This document shows, piece by piece, positions 7,007 through 39,463 of a DNA stretch of 64,000 nucleotides (positions within the stretch are counted from its first letter, which is position 1; every line of letters starts with the position of its first letter). Below the pieces are notes generated by a model. It did not search any database and had not been told where the DNA came from. It saw only the letters and a program-made list of their open reading frames with translations. The stretch is from the sequence record NC_135728.1; one strand, 5' to 3'. A program made the translations under genes and the position numbers. The DNA is from a phage.

Positions 7007-9604
7007 TTAAAGGTACAATCCACGGTATTGAGCATAAAGGCCCAGACCGCGAAGGATTTCGCCAGAGTGATAGCCAACCGGATCAGAAACTGCCCAGCAG
7101 CCGTTTAAAACATTATCCCCATTAATGAAGTGGTGCTTTTGCAGTAGCTTCACACAGGCCTCTACAACAATATCTATTTGGGGTATTGTCTCTGAATACC
7201 CGCACAGACCTAGCCAGCAGCAACCTGCAAGCCATTCACCTACCACCCACATCCTGTCGCCTCTATCTTGATAAGAATATCCCCCAGAGGTGTTAAAGTC
7301 TGTAGGTAGGTTTCCTGAATGAGATGACTGGAATCTGTTGAGAAACCATGCCCATTTCTGGCAGAACAGGAATAATCTTTCATCAACAGGTTCTTTATGT
7401 TTCTTGAGCTCATAGATTGTGCGGCACGCAGCAACAAAAGATCTTGACTGGAGTTTAGAGTTATCTACCATCTCCCACCAACCAGTCAACCCTTCATTAC
7501 CTCTTTGCCATACATAACGTGAGGCAACTGGACCCTCTGTCTTAAATGTATTATTATACCAGACTTGAGCGTCATACAGAAAGCCTATTGTATTTGACAA
7601 TCTATGGCGATCTATGTTTTCTGCACCCATGCAGTATACTGCTGGGTATTGCATGCCAGGGTAGGGCCAATTTGGCTTTTCCTCTAAGAGATAGTTTTCC
7701 TTATCTATCACCTTTCCGGCAGGGAACACACCTGGTGTGTGCCTGTATGCACCTTGCTTGTAGTTTCTGACATAGCAATCACCAACCTTAGCGGTTGATT
7801 CTGTCTTGCTTGCCATCCATACGCTAAACCATATTAGATAAGCATCCCTATCTGCAATATAGAACTGCGGCAGCGTGTTTACGCAGTACAGATCAAACAA
7901 GCCATTGCCTATCTGCCTGTCGCTTAGGCTGAAATCTACAGAGGTGAGTCCCTTAGGATTAGCAAAGAAAGGTTTAATCTCTTCTTCGGTGTGATGAGGT
8001 TGTGTCGGATCTAGTTTGAAATCTCCTAGAGTAAGAGTTTCTGTTATCCATTGTCCATTAGTGGCATATAGATCAGCATACCATAACCACCTATCTTTGT
8101 CAAGAAATTTGACCCTTACCATCTCATCATCTGATCGATAAGTTACTGAGTTTAAAGAAATCTCTCTCCCAAAATTGAAAGTTACTTTACCTCTTGCTAT
8201 ATTACAACGGGTGAAGTTGTCAGAGTGGTTGTAAATGTCGGTATCATACTGCATACTAACACTAGCGCCACCGCTTACGACAATGTTTTCCTCTTTAGGT
8301 AAGAGATACGGATTACCGTCTTTACCAACTACCTCTACGAAATCAGTAACCTTGGCAACTATTTCTGTTACCTCTGCCCCTCCAAAAGGAACCCCTATCC
8401 TGTACTGTTTTTTGTTATTGTTGCCATCATTAAGGATGAAATGTGGCTGGAACAGAACCCCTTCTCCTCCGAAATTCATAACAATTTCAGCATCTCTGCC
8501 TATTTTGTATGTAGTCCCTTTTTGAATTATTTCGCAAGGCTGGCGTGCGTTCATTCTAAAATTGATATACCCGTCACTGTCCCTGCTCATGGCAGGAACT
8601 GTTCCTGCAACAAGGCAAGTACCATCTGTAAACGGTGCCTTAATCAACGTGGTCTTCCTAAACAGTTTGTCGTAGGCGTTTATATCACTGAAATTAAGCA
8701 ATTTGTTGTAAGACTGTTTAAACGCGGTGTAATACTTTTCCTCACCTGTCAAGGTGTAGAGTTGATAACAAGCGTCACACCACATTTCTTCCCCGTCCAA
8801 CTCTGGGGCCTGATTATCTGCAACCACGTTTATAGGATTTACAATTACAGGGGATCCTGCAGGTATCACCGATCCGCCCTGCTCTTGAGGTAATCTTACA
8901 CAATAGGTCACCTTGTGGCTGCCTGTAACACCCTTATCTTGTAATTGGATTGTGCCGAACTCTACAGACGTATGACCACTGTCGGCTATGCTACCGTTAG
9001 CCCAATAGCGGTTACCATCCCATGCTATGTACCACTCAACCCCCCAACTTAATCCGGATGTTGTCCAATCTGGGTTAGCATCTGTGCCACCGTAAACATC
9101 GGAGTCTACAGTATCTCTTCCTAACACACCGTTATACGCTTGGAATGCCTTGTCAAGGTATTCCCCCCATGTCGGAGATCCAGCTGGGATTTTTCCTCTA
9201 CCGTTGGTAAAAGACACCACCACATCTTTAAACCCACCATGTGATGGAACCCCATCTGTGGATAGAGGGTAGTGGGACAATCTTTGCATTTTACTTTCTA
9301 CTGCATATGCACCCAGAAGATGACTATTGTAAGCTTCCCAAGCATCTTTTGCCCTATCCAGATAGAAATCGCTTTTCGATGCCCTGTATGCTTCAATGTA
9401 TCCCAGAATCAACACAGCTTGGGACTCATGCATTGCCCAATCATTATTTATCTTATTACCTGCCCACCCTGCAGCTATAAGACCATCAGGGTTTACTAAC
9501 TTATTTTGAGTATGGGTGTTGGTAATACCTGTGTTGTTATCGAGGCACTTCCTGTGCCCCTCAATCATCTGAAATACGTTATCAATGTTGTGTTGAATAC
9601 GCAT
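7007..9604 (-). CDS. tail fibre/tailspike-like protein (865 aa), possible carbohydrate-active domain
   Basis: Large ORF between baseplate and fibre genes; composition suggests a glycoside-hydrolase-like fold (weak, by eye). Confidence 0.4.
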   Translation of the reverse strand: MRIQHNIDNVFQMIEGHRKCLDNNTGITNTHTQNKLVNPDGLIAAGWAGNKINNDWAMHESQAVLILGYIEAYRASKSDFYLDRAKDAWEAYNSHLLGAYAVESKMQRLSHYPLSTDGVPSHGGFKDVVVSFTNGRGKIPAGSPTWGEYLDKAFQAYNGVLGRDTVDSDVYGGTDANPDWTTSGLSWGVEWYIAWDGNRYWANGSIADSGHTSVEFGTIQLQDKGVTGSHKVTYCVRLPQEQGGSVIPAGSPVIVNPINVVADNQAPELDGEEMWCDACYQLYTLTGEEKYYTAFKQSYNKLLNFSDINAYDKLFRKTTLIKAPFTDGTCLVAGTVPAMSRDSDGYINFRMNARQPCEIIQKGTTYKIGRDAEIVMNFGGEGVLFQPHFILNDGNNNKKQYRIGVPFGGAEVTEIVAKVTDFVEVVGKDGNPYLLPKEENIVVSGGASVSMQYDTDIYNHSDNFTRCNIARGKVTFNFGREISLNSVTYRSDDEMVRVKFLDKDRWLWYADLYATNGQWITETLTLGDFKLDPTQPHHTEEEIKPFFANPKGLTSVDFSLSDRQIGNGLFDLYCVNTLPQFYIADRDAYLIWFSVWMASKTESTAKVGDCYVRNYKQGAYRHTPGVFPAGKVIDKENYLLEEKPNWPYPGMQYPAVYCMGAENIDRHRLSNTIGFLYDAQVWYNNTFKTEGPVASRYVWQRGNEGLTGWWEMVDNSKLQSRSFVAACRTIYELKKHKEPVDERLFLFCQKWAWFLNRFQSSHSGNLPTDFNTSGGYSYQDRGDRMWVVGEWLAGCCWLGLCGYSETIPQIDIVVEACVKLLQKHHFINGDNVLNGCWAVSDPVGYHSGEILRGLGLYAQYRGLYL

Positions 9605-30190: not shown

Positions 30191-30196
30191 AAAAAG

Positions 30197-30294
30197 GTGC
30201 TAGGCGGTGGAATCGAACCACCTATGTATTCAACGACTACCTCGTCTATTTTCAGGATTAAAAATCCTCGCCCTTGCCAAAGGGCTTACCTAGC
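30197..30294 (-). tRNA. atypical tRNA-like gene (about 98 nt; canonical acceptor and T-arm, aberrant anticodon/variable region, CCA not fully encoded)
   Basis: Acceptor GCTAGGT/GCCTAGC and T-arm GGTGG-TTCGATT-CCACC are canonical; only a 4-bp AGGA/TCCT stem with loop TTTTTAA and a ~30-nt region before the T-arm; positions 8-9 are AA. Confidence 0.4.
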
Positions 30295-33700: not shown

Positions 33701-34255
33701 TTACTCCCTGCTGTCAATATCAAAACTCATTGCAATACGGTATGCCTCTTCTAATGGTAAGAGTCTCCCCCACACATCCCAACCGACATCAAACTGTCTA
33801 CCAAACAACTGTTGTGTGGTTCCGTGAGCATGACCGAACAGTTGGACTGATCCGTGATGCTTTCTGTTCCACGTTGCAAACTGGTAATGGCTCATACAGA
33901 TCAAATTCTTGTTGTGGCGAAGCTCGTAATAATCTACAACCTCATGACCGAACTCTTTCATAATTCTGACAGTCGTCCTTGTGTCATGGTTGCCACGAAC
34001 AAGAATAATATGTCCGTTCAACATATTTAGAATATCTGGAAGTAAGTTGTTGATATTCTTATCATTAGTGCACGCAATATCTCCCAGGTGGAACACAGTG
34101 TCTGCAGGTGACACAACTGAGTTCCACTCGGTGATGATTCCCGCATTCATACTGTCAAGATTGTGATCATATTGAGATCTGTGTTTTTGACATGAATCAA
34201 ACTCCATGACCCGCTGGTGGAGAAAGTGCGTATCGCTTGTTACAAAGTATTTCAT
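33701..34255 (-). CDS. calcineurin-like metallophosphoesterase (putative RNA 2',3'-phosphatase of an RNA-repair set)
   Basis: Motifs DTHF, GDIA, GNHD, GHAH; start set at internal Met with GAGGAA RBS just after the kinase stop. Confidence 0.65.
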   Translation of the reverse strand: MKYFVTSDTHFLHQRVMEFDSCQKHRSQYDHNLDSMNAGIITEWNSVVSPADTVFHLGDIACTNDKNINNLLPDILNMLNGHIILVRGNHDTRTTVRIMKEFGHEVVDYYELRHNKNLICMSHYQFATWNRKHHGSVQLFGHAHGTTQQLFGRQFDVGWDVWGRLLPLEEAYRIAMSFDIDSRE

Positions 34256-34262
34256 ACATTCC

Positions 34263-34673
34263 TCATTTAAGTTTAATGCAGTTTTTAAGCTGGCGTTCCA
34301 TACGATCCACAACCTTGTCTGGAACATCATGAATGCTTTTATTACCGTGGCGGTTTTCAACCACGATTACGGTATAACTATACCCATGACTGATTGCCAT
34401 GTCAACATATTCCTGCACATGTTTTTCTTTTGTAAACGTATTACTTACCACGATACGGTCGTATCCCATACACATCATATCTTCTACGTTATCTTTGCAC
34501 CATTTTGCTGCGAGTGTTACTTTACTTGCATCCCAGTTGTAATTGCCGTCATCGTCATACCAAAACATGTCATTCTCAAAATGTGGATACAGACCTTCTA
34601 AAGATAGCGCATTTGCCAGTGTTGATTTGCCAGACCCTGGCAGACCACGCACGATATATAGCATTTTAGACAT
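34263..34673 (-). CDS. P-loop polynucleotide kinase-like protein
   Basis: Walker A GLPGSGKST near the N-terminus; start at Met of MSKMLYIVRG with GGAGG RBS 7 nt upstream; ORF-track N-terminal extension judged spurious. Confidence 0.6.
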   Translation of the reverse strand: MSKMLYIVRGLPGSGKSTLANALSLEGLYPHFENDMFWYDDDGNYNWDASKVTLAAKWCKDNVEDMMCMGYDRIVVSNTFTKEKHVQEYVDMAISHGYSYTVIVVENRHGNKSIHDVPDKVVDRMERQLKNCIKLK

Positions 34674-34773
34674 AGCAATCCTCCGTTTTAATTTTAATGA
34701 TAGTATACCTAACTGTTTTGTTAATTTCAAGTGTTGACACCAGGTTGTTTGTGTGGCAGGATAGACTGACAAA

Positions 34774-35709
34774 ATGACAAATGAGGAACGTATGATGAAG
34801 TATTTTAATGCAGATGACCTAGTAGACAAAGGTCTTGTAACCAGTCGGTATTATCCAGATCTTGGATTAAAGATCTATAAATATGCCAGAAAAGTATTCT
34901 ACAACAATCTGTGGCATTTGTCTCCGCGTTTACTGGAGTGCCGAGGTATTGTTGTTGGCAATGAGGGGAATGTTGTGGCATGGCCTTTCACAAAAGTATT
35001 CAACTTAGGAGAAAACTCCACCAACCTACCGGACAGTAAACTTGTTACTGCGGTAGAGAAAAAGAACGGATTCCTCGGTGTGGTATCATCTCATAAAGGT
35101 GAACTATTGTTCTCAACAACCGGGTCTCTTGATTCCCCATATTGTAACCTCGCAAAAGAAACCATCAGGGAGCAATGTGGTAATTTAGATCTTATCAAGA
35201 AGGTTATGGGCAATGAAAACATGACATTCATGTTTGAAATTTGCCACCCTTCAGATCCGCATATTGTTCAGGAAGATCATGGCGCATATTTGATAGGTTG
35301 CAGATATAATGATTCTGGAATAATGCTACCAGAAGCAGCTTTAGATGGGATTGCCAAATACCTTGGTGCAAAACGTCCTCACACTGTGCGTGAAATTCCG
35401 TTCAGCTATGCAAAAGAATTAGCTGCAGAAACAAGAGGTGAAGGGTATATGATTCGTAAGCCTTACTACCCTTATGATCTGCAGCTGAAGATCAAGTCTC
35501 CATACTATCTGGCACGGAAGGCAGTAATGAGGGGTAAAGCTTGGAAGATTTGGGATGATGATATCTTTAAACGTGTTGACGAAGAGTTTTACGGTATGGT
35601 AAAATTTATTCGTAGCAACTATACAGAAGATGTGTGGAATTGCTTATTAGAGCAGGAGCGTCGTGAGATACTGGACTACTATTTCCACAACGAGGACTAT
35701 ATGCAATGA
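34774..35709 (+). CDS. RNA ligase, T4 Rnl1-like
   Basis: Stretches resembling T4 RNA ligase 1 as recalled: LECRGI, KVFNLGEN, nucleotidyl-transferase motif I KKNGFL, LFSTTGS. Confidence 0.65.
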   Translation: MTNEERMMKYFNADDLVDKGLVTSRYYPDLGLKIYKYARKVFYNNLWHLSPRLLECRGIVVGNEGNVVAWPFTKVFNLGENSTNLPDSKLVTAVEKKNGFLGVVSSHKGELLFSTTGSLDSPYCNLAKETIREQCGNLDLIKKVMGNENMTFMFEICHPSDPHIVQEDHGAYLIGCRYNDSGIMLPEAALDGIAKYLGAKRPHTVREIPFSYAKELAAETRGEGYMIRKPYYPYDLQLKIKSPYYLARKAVMRGKAWKIWDDDIFKRVDEEFYGMVKFIRSNYTEDVWNCLLEQERREILDYYFHNEDYMQ

Positions 35710-36056
35710 AGAAGTGGATTGTGTGGCTTGATGATTTTAGAGATCCGTCAGATTATGGACTCCCAGACGCTCTGTGGCTAAAGAATTCTTCTGAGTTTAT
35801 GGATTTTCTTAATGATAAGAGAAAGCTCTACAGACGCGTATCTGAGTGGTATTTTGACAATGATCTAGGTGAAGTGCTTGAAGGGTACGACTGCTTCTCT
35901 GCGCTAGAGGAGAAATTTGTATTCGGAAAGCCACCACTTATTGACAACGTGATTATTTTCGTGCATACTTCTAATCCATCGGCAGCTCGTAAATTTATGC
36001 TTGCTGCTGACTCATTCAAGAAGTTTGGAATAGAGATCAAACAAAACATCTACTAA
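35706..36056 (+). CDS. hypothetical protein (116 aa) within the ligase/Sir2 operon
   Basis: ORF track; start overlaps the ligase stop. Confidence 0.5.
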   Translation: MKKWIVWLDDFRDPSDYGLPDALWLKNSSEFMDFLNDKRKLYRRVSEWYFDNDLGEVLEGYDCFSALEEKFVFGKPPLIDNVIIFVHTSNPSAARKFMLAADSFKKFGIEIKQNIY

Positions 36057-36064
36057 GGACATTT

Positions 36065-36826
36065 ATGCGACGACTGATTATTATCTCCGGTGCTGGTTTG
36101 AGCGCTGAATCTGGTATTCCAACTTTCCGATCTGGTAGCACTGCAATGTGGGAGAATTTCAGCATCGATGAGGTGTGCAACATCCACACCTTTGCCAAGA
36201 ACTACTATAAGGTGCATGACTTTTACAATGCACGTCGTGTAGCTCTGGGCAGTGTTGATCCTAACCTTGCACATCTTCGGATCGCTGAGTGGTATTCCCG
36301 CTGGCCTGGTCGTGTGATCAACCTTACCACCAATGTAGATGATTTGCTGGAGCGTGCTGGTGTAAAACATGAAGATATTTTACATGTCCACGGGTATTTG
36401 CCTGAAATCACCTACGAAGATGCTGAAGGTAACGATGTAATTAAAAATATCGGATACACGGAGGTAGATACAGGCAAGTATACCTGGGTTAAGCCTAATG
36501 TAGTGTTCTTCGGTGAGGTTGCTCCTAAGTATACAGACATGTATGACCTGTTGACATCTCTCACAAGCAATGATATGGTGATCCTGGTAGGTTGTTCTAA
36601 CACAGTTATTAATTTTAACTGGGAATTGTTTCCTGCTACTTGTAAAGGCACAAAACTGCTGATTGTAAACAAGTATGACTCGCAGAGTGCAGATGGAAGT
36701 GGCATTTCACGTAGCGACCTTTATCAATATGAGGATCGCGGGATCCCTGTATGGTTTAACGGTGCTGTTGACGCTTTCTCTGATAAAGCATTTATTGAAA
36801 CTGTAGAAAACTTTATGGAACTTTAA
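36065..36826 (+). CDS. Sir2-family (sirtuin-like) NAD-dependent protein lacking the zinc ribbon
   Basis: Sirtuin signatures GAGLSAESGIPTFR, TNVDDLLERAG, HVHG, VVFFGE, ILVGCS; no CxxC pairs between the HG and FFGE motifs. Confidence 0.7.
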   Translation: MRRLIIISGAGLSAESGIPTFRSGSTAMWENFSIDEVCNIHTFAKNYYKVHDFYNARRVALGSVDPNLAHLRIAEWYSRWPGRVINLTTNVDDLLERAGVKHEDILHVHGYLPEITYEDAEGNDVIKNIGYTEVDTGKYTWVKPNVVFFGEVAPKYTDMYDLLTSLTSNDMVILVGCSNTVINFNWELFPATCKGTKLLIVNKYDSQSADGSGISRSDLYQYEDRGIPVWFNGAVDAFSDKAFIETVENFMEL

Positions 36827-36839
36827 AAGGAGACCTTTA

Positions 36840-37553
36840 ATGCTGAATACTAAACTGATCGACAACCTGGAAAAACTGTCTCAGCCTGAAAACTACCTTT
36901 GGTCTGCCAACTGGGTGGAAAACTGGAACCGTGTGGCAGCTAAAGTGAAAAAATCATACACACCATTCGAATTACAGCTTAGCTTCATTGAGGAAGAGTT
37001 CAATGAGGTTTTGGAAGAGCTGGAGAAAGGTGATGGTGGAGATCACCTGCTAAAAGAGGCCTGCGATCTTCACGTTGTCACAAGTTATGCCGCTTATCTT
37101 GTTAATGACAATCACGAAAAGTGGTCAAACCTGTTTGATAATCCACGAGGTCTTAAGTTCAAGATCGGTGAGTTCTATGATACACTGATCGCTGCGAAAA
37201 ACACATCCAAGCAAAGAGCGTCAGCTTACCGCTTAGCGGAGTTGTCAACAGCTTTGCTGTTCCAGCTTCGCGGAGATGTGTGTGGGATGATGCGGAAGGT
37301 TCTCAAATCTAATGACAGTAAGTTTGCACGGATCAACCATCTACGGCATTCACACGGTGCCAGTGCAGATATGCCTGCTGAACAACTCATCGAGTTGGAG
37401 ATTAAAGATCTTGAGCGTCGTTTTGGTGGTCGCTACGAAGGTTTCGTTGCTAAAGAGGAGTTCTACAACGGCAATAAAGTTATTATATTCCTTGACAGTA
37501 AAGGTAAGATTATGAAGCCTTCGAGCTTCAAGGATGTAACAGAGTATATTTAA
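36840..37553 (+). CDS. MazG-like nucleoside triphosphate pyrophosphohydrolase, putative
   Basis: EExxE-type motif FIEEEFNEVLEELEKG followed by KEACDLHVV, resembling all-alpha NTP pyrophosphatases. Confidence 0.4.
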   Translation: MLNTKLIDNLEKLSQPENYLWSANWVENWNRVAAKVKKSYTPFELQLSFIEEEFNEVLEELEKGDGGDHLLKEACDLHVVTSYAAYLVNDNHEKWSNLFDNPRGLKFKIGEFYDTLIAAKNTSKQRASAYRLAELSTALLFQLRGDVCGMMRKVLKSNDSKFARINHLRHSHGASADMPAEQLIELEIKDLERRFGGRYEGFVAKEEFYNGNKVIIFLDSKGKIMKPSSFKDVTEYI

Positions 37554-37557
37554 CAAC

Positions 37558-37584
37558 ATAGCCGGGATTACCCGGCTTTACTTA
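37558..37584 (+). terminator. rho-independent terminator
   Basis: gccgggattacccggc hairpin followed by TTTACTT. Confidence 0.6.
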
Positions 37585-37615
37585 TTATGGAAAGTATGCA
37601 GTGAGGTAGTCAGTT

Positions 37616-37924
37616 ATGTACAAGCATTCCAGAGATCTTGAAAAAGATGCTGTGTTTGGCGACCAGATGAAGGAGCTGATCAAACTTATTGGTAGAATGG
37701 AAGATAAGTTTGACACTAAAATCTACATCGATAGCAAGATCTTCAACCACAAAATATGGACAAATGTGTGTGTTGGGCTACATGGTGATAAAGATATTGT
37801 AAATTTGGTTGTAATAAAGTTCATAGTGTGGCAGAATAGGACTATACGTTATTCCGATCCACACTTACTTGTTTATCCTATAAAAGACCTACTACAGAAG
37901 GAGGACTGCAATGCCGTTATTTAA
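37616..37924 (+). CDS. hypothetical protein (102 aa)
   Basis: ORF track. Confidence 0.45.
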   Translation: MYKHSRDLEKDAVFGDQMKELIKLIGRMEDKFDTKIYIDSKIFNHKIWTNVCVGLHGDKDIVNLVVIKFIVWQNRTIRYSDPHLLVYPIKDLLQKEDCNAVI

Positions 37925-38180
37925 TCTTGCTAAACCTGTAGAAGCACACCAGTTTGACGGAAGCTCTTCATCAGTATCTGATCTGCAACGGTGGATTGAT
38001 ACTGGTGTGTTTACATCGTCGCCTGTTCGGACCAGAGATATTCGTCGCATGTGTGAGCTTATCGAGCCGTTTGGTAACCTTGTCTTGTACCAGGGAGATT
38101 GGCTAGTTGACTTTATGGGAGACTGGTTGGTAATGAGTAAAGAAGAGATGTTTAAAATTTTTAAGGAAGAGGCCGAGTAA
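37911..38180 (+). CDS. hypothetical protein (89 aa)
   Basis: ORF track; start-stop overlaps. Confidence 0.45.
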   Translation: MPLFNLAKPVEAHQFDGSSSSVSDLQRWIDTGVFTSSPVRTRDIRRMCELIEPFGNLVLYQGDWLVDFMGDWLVMSKEEMFKIFKEEAE

Positions 38181-39463
38181 TGCATCAAATCAAAACAACA
38201 CTGTACGCACTGAACAAAGATGGCAGCTACCAACAGTGGAAAGTATTCACTGATGGCGAAAAGGTTATCGTAGAGTTTGGCAAGCTTGACGGTAAATTGC
38301 AGTACAAAGAGACGGTATGCACACCTAAGAACGTAGGTCGTGCCAACGAGACTACAGCTGAGCAACAGGCCGAGCTTGAGGCTATCAGCAAGTGGGAAAA
38401 ACAAGTCCGCCTGGGGTATGTTGAAAACATGGAAGATTGCGAGCAGGGTGTTGATCTTTTACCCATGCTGGTGCATGACTACCTGAAGCGTGGCAAGGCA
38501 CTTAAATTACCTTGCTGGATCTTGCGTAAGTTAGATGGTCTTCGTCTGCTTGTTGTTTTCCAAAATGGTGAGCCTAAATTTATTTCCCGTGGTAATAAGT
38601 CCTACCCTATTCAAGGAAAGCTTTTAGAGCAACTTCGTTCTTTCCATTCTACCACTAGGATTAAACAACTTGATGGGGAACTATACATTCATGGTCTTCC
38701 TTTGCAGAAAATAGTGTCTCTTGCTAAACGGTGGCGCACACAGGAAGAGATTCAGGCCGAGATCGATAAAGACTATGAGGCAGATAAAAAACGCCGTCAT
38801 GCAGCAATTAAGGCAGGCTTATCAACATACAAAAACTTCAACAAGGTAGATATTCCTGTCGATGTTGAGCCTGTTCGTGATGATTTGCGTTACGGCGGGT
38901 ACTGTAGCTACGATCTGGAGTATCACATTTTTGATATTCCTAGCGACAAGGTGTGGTGGGATCCAGAAACAGAGTCTGGGCGCTGCAAGGATCTTATGGA
39001 TGCAGAGGATACCGTTACCACTCTGATGCTTGATCATATCAAGGTTGTTGACGCAGAGCTTGCGTACACAGTTGATCATTGCGAAGAATCTGTTGGTATA
39101 TTCATGTCCGAAGGATATGAAGGTACTATCATGCGTAATTTCTGCGGTAAATATGAGTATGGTCAGCGAACATCTGAAGCATTGAAATGGAAAAAGTTCA
39201 ACGACGCAGAGGTGAAAGTTATTGACGTTGAGAAAGATAAGAATGATGAAGGTGTTCTTATCTGTGTTGACAAGGAAGGTGTTGTTGTTAAAATGAAGAT
39301 GAAAGGCACGCACGAGGAGCGTAGCTATGACAGGATGCAGGAAATGATCGGCAAGTTTGTCACCTTCAAATACCAAGCAAGGACAGAAGACAACAACTAC
39401 CAATTCCCTGTCGGTATCTGCGTCCGAAATGTTAACCCAGACACTTGGGAGGTGCTTGAATGA
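38180..39463 (+). CDS. ATP-dependent DNA ligase
   Basis: Nucleotidyl-transferase motifs I (RKLDGLR), III (LDGELYIHG), IV (EGYEGTIMR), V (LKWKKF). Confidence 0.7.
   Translation: MHQIKTTLYALNKDGSYQQWKVFTDGEKVIVEFGKLDGKLQYKETVCTPKNVGRANETTAEQQAELEAISKWEKQVRLGYVENMEDCEQGVDLLPMLVHDYLKRGKALKLPCWILRKLDGLRLLVVFQNGEPKFISRGNKSYPIQGKLLEQLRSFHSTTRIKQLDGELYIHGLPLQKIVSLAKRWRTQEEIQAEIDKDYEADKKRRHAAIKAGLSTYKNFNKVDIPVDVEPVRDDLRYGGYCSYDLEYHIFDIPSDKVWWDPETESGRCKDLMDAEDTVTTLMLDHIKVVDAELAYTVDHCEESVGIFMSEGYEGTIMRNFCGKYEYGQRTSEALKWKKFNDAEVKVIDVEKDKNDEGVLICVDKEGVVVKMKMKGTHEERSYDRMQEMIGKFVTFKYQARTEDNNYQFPVGICVRNVNPDTWEVLE

Follow-up and report, generated by a model that had tools for sequence, protein, structure and literature searches.

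A MazG/HisE-like protein encoded beside a Sir2 gene in an rV5-like coliphage belongs to a phage family whose genes lie mostly near DNA ligase or DNA polymerase

Results

The MazG-like gene and its neighbors

The window examined in this study, a 64,000-nucleotide stretch of phage DNA (NC_135728.1), comes from an rV5-like E. coli phage of the genus Vequintavirus and is about 99% identical to phage EmilHeitz. At positions 36840–37553 of the + strand lies an ATG-initiated gene for a 237-residue MazG/HisE-like all-alpha NTP pyrophosphohydrolase, the orthologue of rV5 gp081 (ORF85). A Shine-Dalgarno sequence, AAGGAG, can be read directly at 36827–36832 (+), 7 nt 5′ of the ATG. The two peptides on which the first-pass annotation had based its MazG-like assignment, FIEEEFNEVLEEL and KEACDLHVV, are present in the translation as residues 49–61 and 72–80, respectively. 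The 2.8-kb segment from 34774 to 37600 is 98.9% identical to the Escherichia phages EmilHeitz and naswa and shares 97–99% identity with over 100 rV5-like Vequintavirus genomes, that of rV5 included; the conservation of the MazG-like gene itself is 96–100% across more than 100 rV5-like phage genomes. Because the reading frame is conserved in this way and has homologues in a family of 163 clusters that is conserved over its full length (see below), we conclude that it is a real gene and not a chance open reading frame.

Database names for this gene vary. The product of rV5 gp081 is a nucleotide pyrophosphohydrolase in RefSeq and a hypothetical protein in most GenBank records. Several entries (among them GenBank MN850595 of naswa and MK883717 of ECP26, and UniProt A0A7H0XDZ2) label the MazG-like gene a "putative Sir2-like protein"; this label is wrong and looks like an annotation that slipped from the adjoining gene. 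About 20 records in the series MG065650–MG065690 are filed as Campylobacter jejuni phages and share 98% nucleotide identity with rV5-like and phAPEC8-like phages of E. coli. Their Campylobacter host looks doubtful, and contamination or mislabelling is perhaps the cause.

The MazG-like gene is the last of four genes packed closely together on the + strand. The string begins with a gene for a T4 Rnl1-type RNA ligase, RnlA (34774–35709; Pfam RNA_lig_T4_1, E = 9e-15; PHROG 562, E = 1e-65). The next gene (35706–36056, +) encodes a protein of 116 residues, previously listed as an unknown, which proved to carry a cREC (cyclic-phosphate processing receiver) domain (PF20274, cREC_REC, E = 2.3e-13). It is followed by the gene for a 253-residue Sir2-family protein (36065–36826, +; Pfam SIR2, E = 1.1e-27; PHROG 2162, E = 9e-109), the upstream neighbor of the MazG-like gene. 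The RnlA stop codon and the cREC start codon overlap by 4 nt in the sequence ATGA, the gap between cREC and Sir2 is 8 nt, and the Sir2 reading frame ends at 36826, leaving a 13-nt gap, so that the MazG-like start lies 14 nt past the last base of the stop codon, which is the distance given in the first-pass annotation. That annotation also had the gene ending at a terminator, and a consensus scan indeed places an intrinsic terminator-like hairpin with seven pairs, six of them G-C, and a T-rich tail at 37560–37577 (+), where a terminator is annotated in phage Murica. No credible internal terminator was found within the string. The tight packing of the four genes and the lack of such a terminator make it plausible, judging from sequence, that RnlA, cREC, Sir2, and the MazG-like gene form a single transcription unit. 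The tight string that had been described is therefore confirmed as a string, and its co-transcription is plausible only.

Two divergently transcribed genes lie on the other side of the RNA ligase gene: a P-loop kinase of the AAA_33/polynucleotide-kinase-like type (34263–34673, −; Pfam AAA_33, E = 1.7e-9) and a calcineurin-like metallophosphoesterase (33701–34255, −; Metallophos, E = 3e-5; Metallophos_2, E = 1.7e-5). Downstream of the hairpin, on the + strand, there is an ATP-dependent DNA ligase gene (38180–39463; Pfam DNA_ligase_A_M and OB_2; PHROG 114, E = 8e-83), preceded by a gene for a conserved 89-residue protein (37911–38180; PHROG 14585) that is found between the DNA ligase and MazG-like genes in other genera. 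This small protein and another, encoded at 37616–37924 (PHROG 7684), accompany the DNA ligase/MazG-like pair across rV5-like genera, the 89-residue one as a rule between the pair.

The locus has been described before. [quoted passage not shown] All six components of their type 2 neighborhood (sirtuin, RNA ligase, cREC, kinase, MazG, and phosphoesterase) were identified at 33701–37553, and the kinase at 34263–34673 corresponds to their nucleotide kinase. The Sir2–MazG neighborhood is thus already published, and the gene assignment is already in the PHROG and RefSeq annotation. Our search of the literature for experimental work on rV5 gp081, phage sirtuin RNA repair, and Vequintavirinae pyrophosphohydrolases returned only the in silico work of the Aravind group and a study of the phage protein Atd1.

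Several other features of this part of the window were noted. The Sir2-like protein keeps the NAD-binding GAGxS sequence and the catalytic histidine (LHVHG); it has three cysteines and no CxxC pair, and hence does not possess the zinc-ribbon module of canonical sirtuins, in keeping with what Iyer et al. (2022) called a "distinct clade of sirtuins". The 100-bp intergenic region between the divergent kinase and RNA ligase genes contains, at approximately 34730–34770, a perfect + strand TTGACA with only a weak −10 element; the consensus scan did not report a promoter here. A cluster of seven tRNA genes detected by ARAGORN includes a tRNA-like gene of 99 nt at 30196–30294 (−) whose anticodon has four bases (atcc); this gene is annotated as "tRNA-OTHER Asp|Gly" in phage Murica and omitted from the rV5 RefSeq record. 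It may represent a tRNA with an intron, a frameshift suppressor, or a degenerate tRNA.

Conserved residues of the MazG-like family

An alignment of 86 family members (A2) was used to determine which residues of the MazG-like protein are conserved. The EExxE metal-binding motif (E52, E53, and E56; 36993–37007, +) has an invariant E53, with E52 and E56 at least 90% conserved, and it aligned with the catalytic helix of HisE and MazG when the family profile was searched against PDB sequences. The ExxD motif (E73 and D76; 37056–37067, +) has an invariant D76, and homologues carry either D or E at position 72/73. Further downstream is the sequence SNDSKF (37308–37325, +), presumed to be a phosphate-binding helix, in which N158 and K161 are invariant. 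The C-terminal GKIMKP motif (37503–37520, +), with K223 and K226 invariant, is part of a family-specific extension and follows a β-hairpin whose strands are residues 203–209 and 212–218 in the predicted model. Besides these six invariant residues, N30, Q46, E52, E56, V79, and P227 are nearly invariant. The family signature can be written WN...Q..L..EE..E...D..CD.FVV.SY...SN.SKF...GRY.GV...GKIMKP.

Superfamily membership and distribution

The window protein by itself matches Pfam PRA-PH with 13.7 bits (E = 0.085), below the 21.3-bit cut-off, and gave only noise against NCBIfam and no match in PADLOC. Its match to PHROG 671, "nucleotide pyrophosphohydrolase", has an E value of 1.5e-21. Among the 86 homologues, 58 match PRA-PH and 19 match MazG at E < 0.01. 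Searches of PDB sequences with the single sequence and with the A1 profile found no match, and the 86-member profile alone reached HisE (E = 0.0066) and E. coli MazG (E = 0.015). The predicted fold has an all-alpha core with a helical hairpin/four-helix bundle that bears the active site, and the acidic EExxE...ExxD signature of the superfamily is present as E52-E53-x-x-E56 and E73-x-x-D76. The Pfam matches of the homologues and the profile matches to HisE and MazG, together with the motif and the predicted fold, agree with the earlier assignment to the MazG/HisE type, and membership of the protein in the all-alpha NTP pyrophosphohydrolase superfamily is well supported.

The predicted model also shows the extended single-chain helical fold of dimeric dUTPases, and the structure that matches it best is 5myd, a dimeric dUTPase of a staphylococcal phage. 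We considered membership in the dUTPase_2 sequence family and ruled it out, since none of the 86 homologues matches Pfam dUTPase_2 at E ≤ 0.01; likewise, the family profile found no dUTPase among PDB sequences at E ≤ 10. An hhalign comparison with the T4 gp56 dCTPase/dUTPase was insignificant (probability 5%). The family is nearest to HisE/MazG by sequence and nearest to the dimeric dUTPases by architecture.

A word-indexed search of 5.8 billion proteins returned only 16 clusters, and an exhaustive profile search returned about 163 representative clusters (50% identity), nearly all of them 200–260 residues long and matching from end to end. Three long multi-domain matches in the representative search (P0109, P0138, and P0146) were discarded as repetitive false positives, and P0085 has no additional Pfam domain, so the family offers no informative fusions. 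Among 185,579 bacterial and archaeal species genomes, a single 1.9-kb MAG fragment was matched, which offers no cellular gene context for comparison; on the basis of these searches, the family (PHROG 671) is essentially phage-restricted. It is confined to virulent phages.

We also compared the family with Atd1 of Pectobacterium phage PcCB7V, which cleaves ppGpp by hydrolysis and guards cells against the toxicity of TIR-STING and retron-TIR (Ho et al., bioRxiv 2022/Cell Rep 2023). PcCB7V belongs to the genus Certrevirus, which is also in the Vequintavirinae. From the published description, Atd1 is probably QQG33500.1, an 86-residue "phosphoribosyl-ATP pyrophosphatase" encoded two genes from a nucleotidyltransferase. 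Alignment of QQG33500.1 with the window family covered 31 columns, the catalytic hairpin only (hhalign probability 85%), and tblastn with this probable Atd1 reading frame found no counterpart in rV5 or in the window. Atd1 had been considered as an orthologue from the same phage subfamily; this was dropped, given its minimal 86-residue domain, the hairpin-only alignment, and the lack of a counterpart. No nucleotidyltransferase is annotated near the rV5 MazG-like gene, whose neighbors are the RNA ligase, cREC, Sir2, two hypothetical proteins, and DNA ligase. A "GTP pyrophosphokinase" (RelA/SpoT-like) is annotated at 67532–68773 of the PcCB7V record (7533–8774 of our locus L044), that is, in the genome that encodes the ppGpp-hydrolysing Atd1.

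Gene context across 56 loci

Related loci were collected with sub-alignments A3 and A5–A8. This gave 56 distinct loci with a family member, four in annotated phages and 52 in IMG/VR contigs, and their flanks were annotated by iterative searches with the window and locus proteins and with Pfam. In two of the 56 loci, Sir2 is no more than 2 kb from the family gene, and in 14 it is no more than 7 kb away; the two genes are directly adjacent only in Vequintavirus (2 loci and the window). The most constant neighbor across rV5-like phages is the ATP-dependent DNA ligase, found within 2 kb in 38 of the 56 loci; all 38 belong to one broad rV5-like clade, and shared synteny confounds phage neighborhood evidence of this kind. 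A family-B DNA polymerase is within 2 kb in 12 loci, directly downstream in 11 and then followed by UvsX and DnaB. The phages of this polymerase-linked lineage, Pseudomonas phage pf16 and its relatives, are unrelated to the rV5-like group and include contigs with TET/JBP and glycosyltransferase DNA-modification genes. In two IMG/VR contigs of pf16-like or T4-like phages (L042, 2209–7666; L039, 2956–7023), the family gene is the last of a DNA-hypermodification cluster, just before DNA polymerase; the cluster comprises a TET/JBP oxygenase, TET-associated glycosyltransferases, a cytidylyltransferase, an epimerase, and a UDP-glucose dehydrogenase. Single contigs have ThyX (L057) or the ribonucleotide reductase genes NrdA/NrdB (L084) adjoining the family gene; as at the DNA polymerase loci, no gene for RNA repair is close by.

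Gene order within the rV5-like group varies by genus. Mydovirus, Seunavirus, and Erwinia-phage relatives share the order phosphoesterase, RNA ligase, (cREC), kinase, Sir2, DNA ligase, 89-residue protein, MazG-like gene; in the Mydovirus relatives, the Sir2 stop codon overlaps the start of the DNA ligase gene. The block of phi92-like and phAPEC8-like phages has no Sir2, and the MazG-like gene is still found behind DNA ligase. Sir2 and the MazG-like gene are 27 kb apart in phage Eryne, and in the closest outgroup (55% identity) a downstream phosphoesterase is the sole RNA-repair gene within 7 kb. Sir2 homologues were found in 1020 phage records, as compared with 324 for the MazG-like family, and most of the Sir2 records have no family member; hundreds of T5-like genomes possess Sir2 and not the MazG-like family.

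These results show that the constant theme of the context is DNA replication and deoxynucleotide supply. No linkage of MazG to the sirtuin or to RNA repair beyond shared synteny was found across the 56 loci, and the Sir2 adjacency is a genus-specific gene order or rearrangement in Vequintavirus that gives no sign of joint work with Sir2. The first-pass annotation had taken the Sir2 linkage as a hint of a nucleotide-signal or NAD-related counter-defence function over nucleotide housekeeping. Because the adjacency is limited to one genus, because the neighbors elsewhere are DNA ligase or DNA polymerase, and because Sir2 is widespread in phages that do not have the family, the linkage provides no support for an NAD-related or nucleotide-signal role in counter-defence.

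Discussion

Our best explanation, to which we would assign a probability of about one half, is that the MazG-like protein is a (d)NTP pyrophosphohydrolase of the phage replication/deoxynucleotide module, with catalysis, substrate class, and role all inferred. It would be an Mg2+-dependent all-alpha pyrophosphohydrolase that combines the MazG/HisE catalytic helix pair with dimeric-dUTPase-like extra helices and a lysine-rich C-terminal β-hairpin. The enzyme would cleave the α–β phosphoanhydride of one or more (d)NTPs to yield (d)NMP and PPi, and the cleavage would either sanitise the precursor pool by removing dUTP or another non-canonical dNTP, or feed dUMP to the phage ThyX. The rV5 genome has genes for ThyX, for a glutaredoxin, and for both an aerobic and an anaerobic ribonucleotide reductase; its annotation lists neither a dUTPase nor a dCMP deaminase, and E. 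coli Dut as a tblastn query found no match. Judging from predicted fold and gene context, a dimeric-dUTPase-like pyrophosphatase could fill this gap, excluding dUTP and supplying dUMP. Two considerations weigh against a role in the dNTP pool. A phage dUTPase might be superfluous in a host that has its own Dut, and the window gene lies physically within the RNA-ligase/cREC/Sir2 string, a single system in the view of Iyer et al. (2022). The dUTPase variant faces the further difficulty that the family lacks dUTPase_2 matches and shows no significant relation to T4 gp56, so that "dUTPase-like" refers to the predicted fold alone.

The position of the gene in that string brings up the alternative that the protein assists, as an accessory enzyme, in a sirtuin-centered, NAD+-dependent RNA (tRNA) repair pathway. 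The kinase, phosphoesterase, and cREC protein would heal 2′,3′-cyclic-phosphate and 5′-OH ends for sealing by the Rnl1-type ligase, and Sir2 would strip the 2′-phosphate in the manner of KptA/Tpt1; MazG might then split the pyrophosphate of an ADP-ribose-derived by-product, as with the Nudix partner proposed for jumbo phages, or process an NTP or adenylylated end. In line with this scheme, every component that Iyer et al. (2022) list for the "phage V5/Mydo" neighborhood was verified in the window, where the closely spaced genes have a terminator in common and where a tRNA cluster lies about 4 kb away, and phages of Mydovirus and Seunavirus again have the block MPE-RnlA-cREC-kinase-Sir2-DNA ligase-x-MazG. 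However, only 14 of the 56 loci have Sir2 within 7 kb, the recurrences all fall in a single synteny-sharing clade, and the published scheme leaves MazG without a function. The family persists in loci that lack one or more of Sir2, RnlA, cREC, and the kinase within 7 kb (L006–L009, L016, L021/22, L023, and L027), and in the second lineage it is found next to DNA polymerase with none of the repair genes. The chemistry is a further obstacle. MazG-type enzymes use triphosphates as substrates, and we know of no precedent for NDP-X activity in the all-alpha NTP pyrophosphohydrolase superfamily. For these reasons, we think that a part in RNA repair is unlikely.

One could also envision a counter-defence or host-takeover enzyme that destroys (p)ppGpp or (p)ppApp, as Atd1 does with ppGpp, or the ddhNTPs made by viperin, and so blunts the abortive infection that NAD depletion triggers. 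The ppGpp hydrolysis by Atd1 of a Vequintavirinae phage, the adjoining gene for an NAD-consuming enzyme, and the restriction of the family to virulent phages are all compatible with such an activity. Against it, the probable Atd1 reading frame shares only the 31-column hairpin with the family and is not an orthologue, PADLOC gave no match, and the context of the 56 loci is DNA replication and not anti-defence islands or nucleotidyltransferase genes; moreover, a cyanophage MazG was reported to prefer dGTP and dCTP and to leave ppGpp uncleaved. We accordingly hold a counter-defence role to be improbable. Still less credible, and in our estimation very improbable, is the suggestion that the fold was retained mainly for binding or regulation, with catalysis secondary or lost, as in the staphylococcal phage dimeric dUTPases that derepress SaPI islands. 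The top structural match, 5myd, is itself such a signalling protein, but the metal-binding acidic residues and the presumed phosphate-binding residues (N158, K161, K223, and K226) are kept across 86 divergent homologues, which argues for a conserved catalytic site.

A role in the replication module could in principle be combined with a role in the string: a replication-module pyrophosphatase might have moved into the RNA-ligase/cREC/Sir2 operon of Vequintavirus through a second substrate, gained or ancestral, in NAD/ADP-ribose chemistry or the stringent response. We regard this combination as doubtful. If it were true, the enzyme would be part of a phage-encoded, sirtuin-dependent pathway of tRNA repair or counter-defence that is new to biochemistry. 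The value of the present analysis is largely corrective, in that the Sir2–MazG adjacency is poor evidence of a joint NAD-related function. The family stands as a well-defined, phage-only branch of NTP pyrophosphohydrolases whose genes neighbor DNA ligase in one phage lineage and DNA polymerase in another, unrelated one. The more interesting question concerns the adjoining Sir2/cREC/Rnl1 cassette, a predicted RNA repair system with a Tpt1-like sirtuin.

How does the (d)NTP pyrophosphohydrolase proposed here compare with known systems? The MazG/HisE (PRA-PH) enzymes (PF03819 and PF01503; superfamily of Moroz et al. 2005) differ from the window protein in size, the 237 residues of the latter being two to three times the minimal domain. 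The window protein has extra helices (approximately residues 90–145 and 165–195), the invariant SNxSKF, and the C-terminal β-hairpin with GKIMKP; it scores below the Pfam threshold, and its family is phage-only. Its likeness to the dimeric dUTPases (staphylococcal phage Dut 5myd, C. jejuni 1w2y, and L. major 2yay) is one of predicted fold only, with 7–14% identity, and these enzymes do not have the C-terminal β-hairpin of the window family. The T4 gp56 dCTPase/dUTPase is similar in being a phage all-alpha NTP pyrophosphatase that shapes the dNTP pool and is encoded in the replication region of its genome; however, there is no significant sequence relation, and no replacement of cytosine that would call for a dCTPase is known in rV5. 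Atd1 resembles the window protein as a MazG-superfamily enzyme from a phage of the same subfamily, with a demonstrated nucleotide-hydrolysing counter-defence activity linked to NAD depletion, whereas it is a minimal 86-residue protein encoded near a nucleotidyltransferase and the window family is larger, with no such gene nearby. Atd1 is thus a precedent for what the superfamily can do and not evidence on the window protein. Finally, the type 2 sirtuin-centered RNA-repair neighborhood of Iyer et al. (2022) is the same locus, with phage V5 as its prototype. Their study keeps MazG within the neighborhood, whereas in the present survey MazG tracks DNA ligase or DNA polymerase and not the sirtuin.
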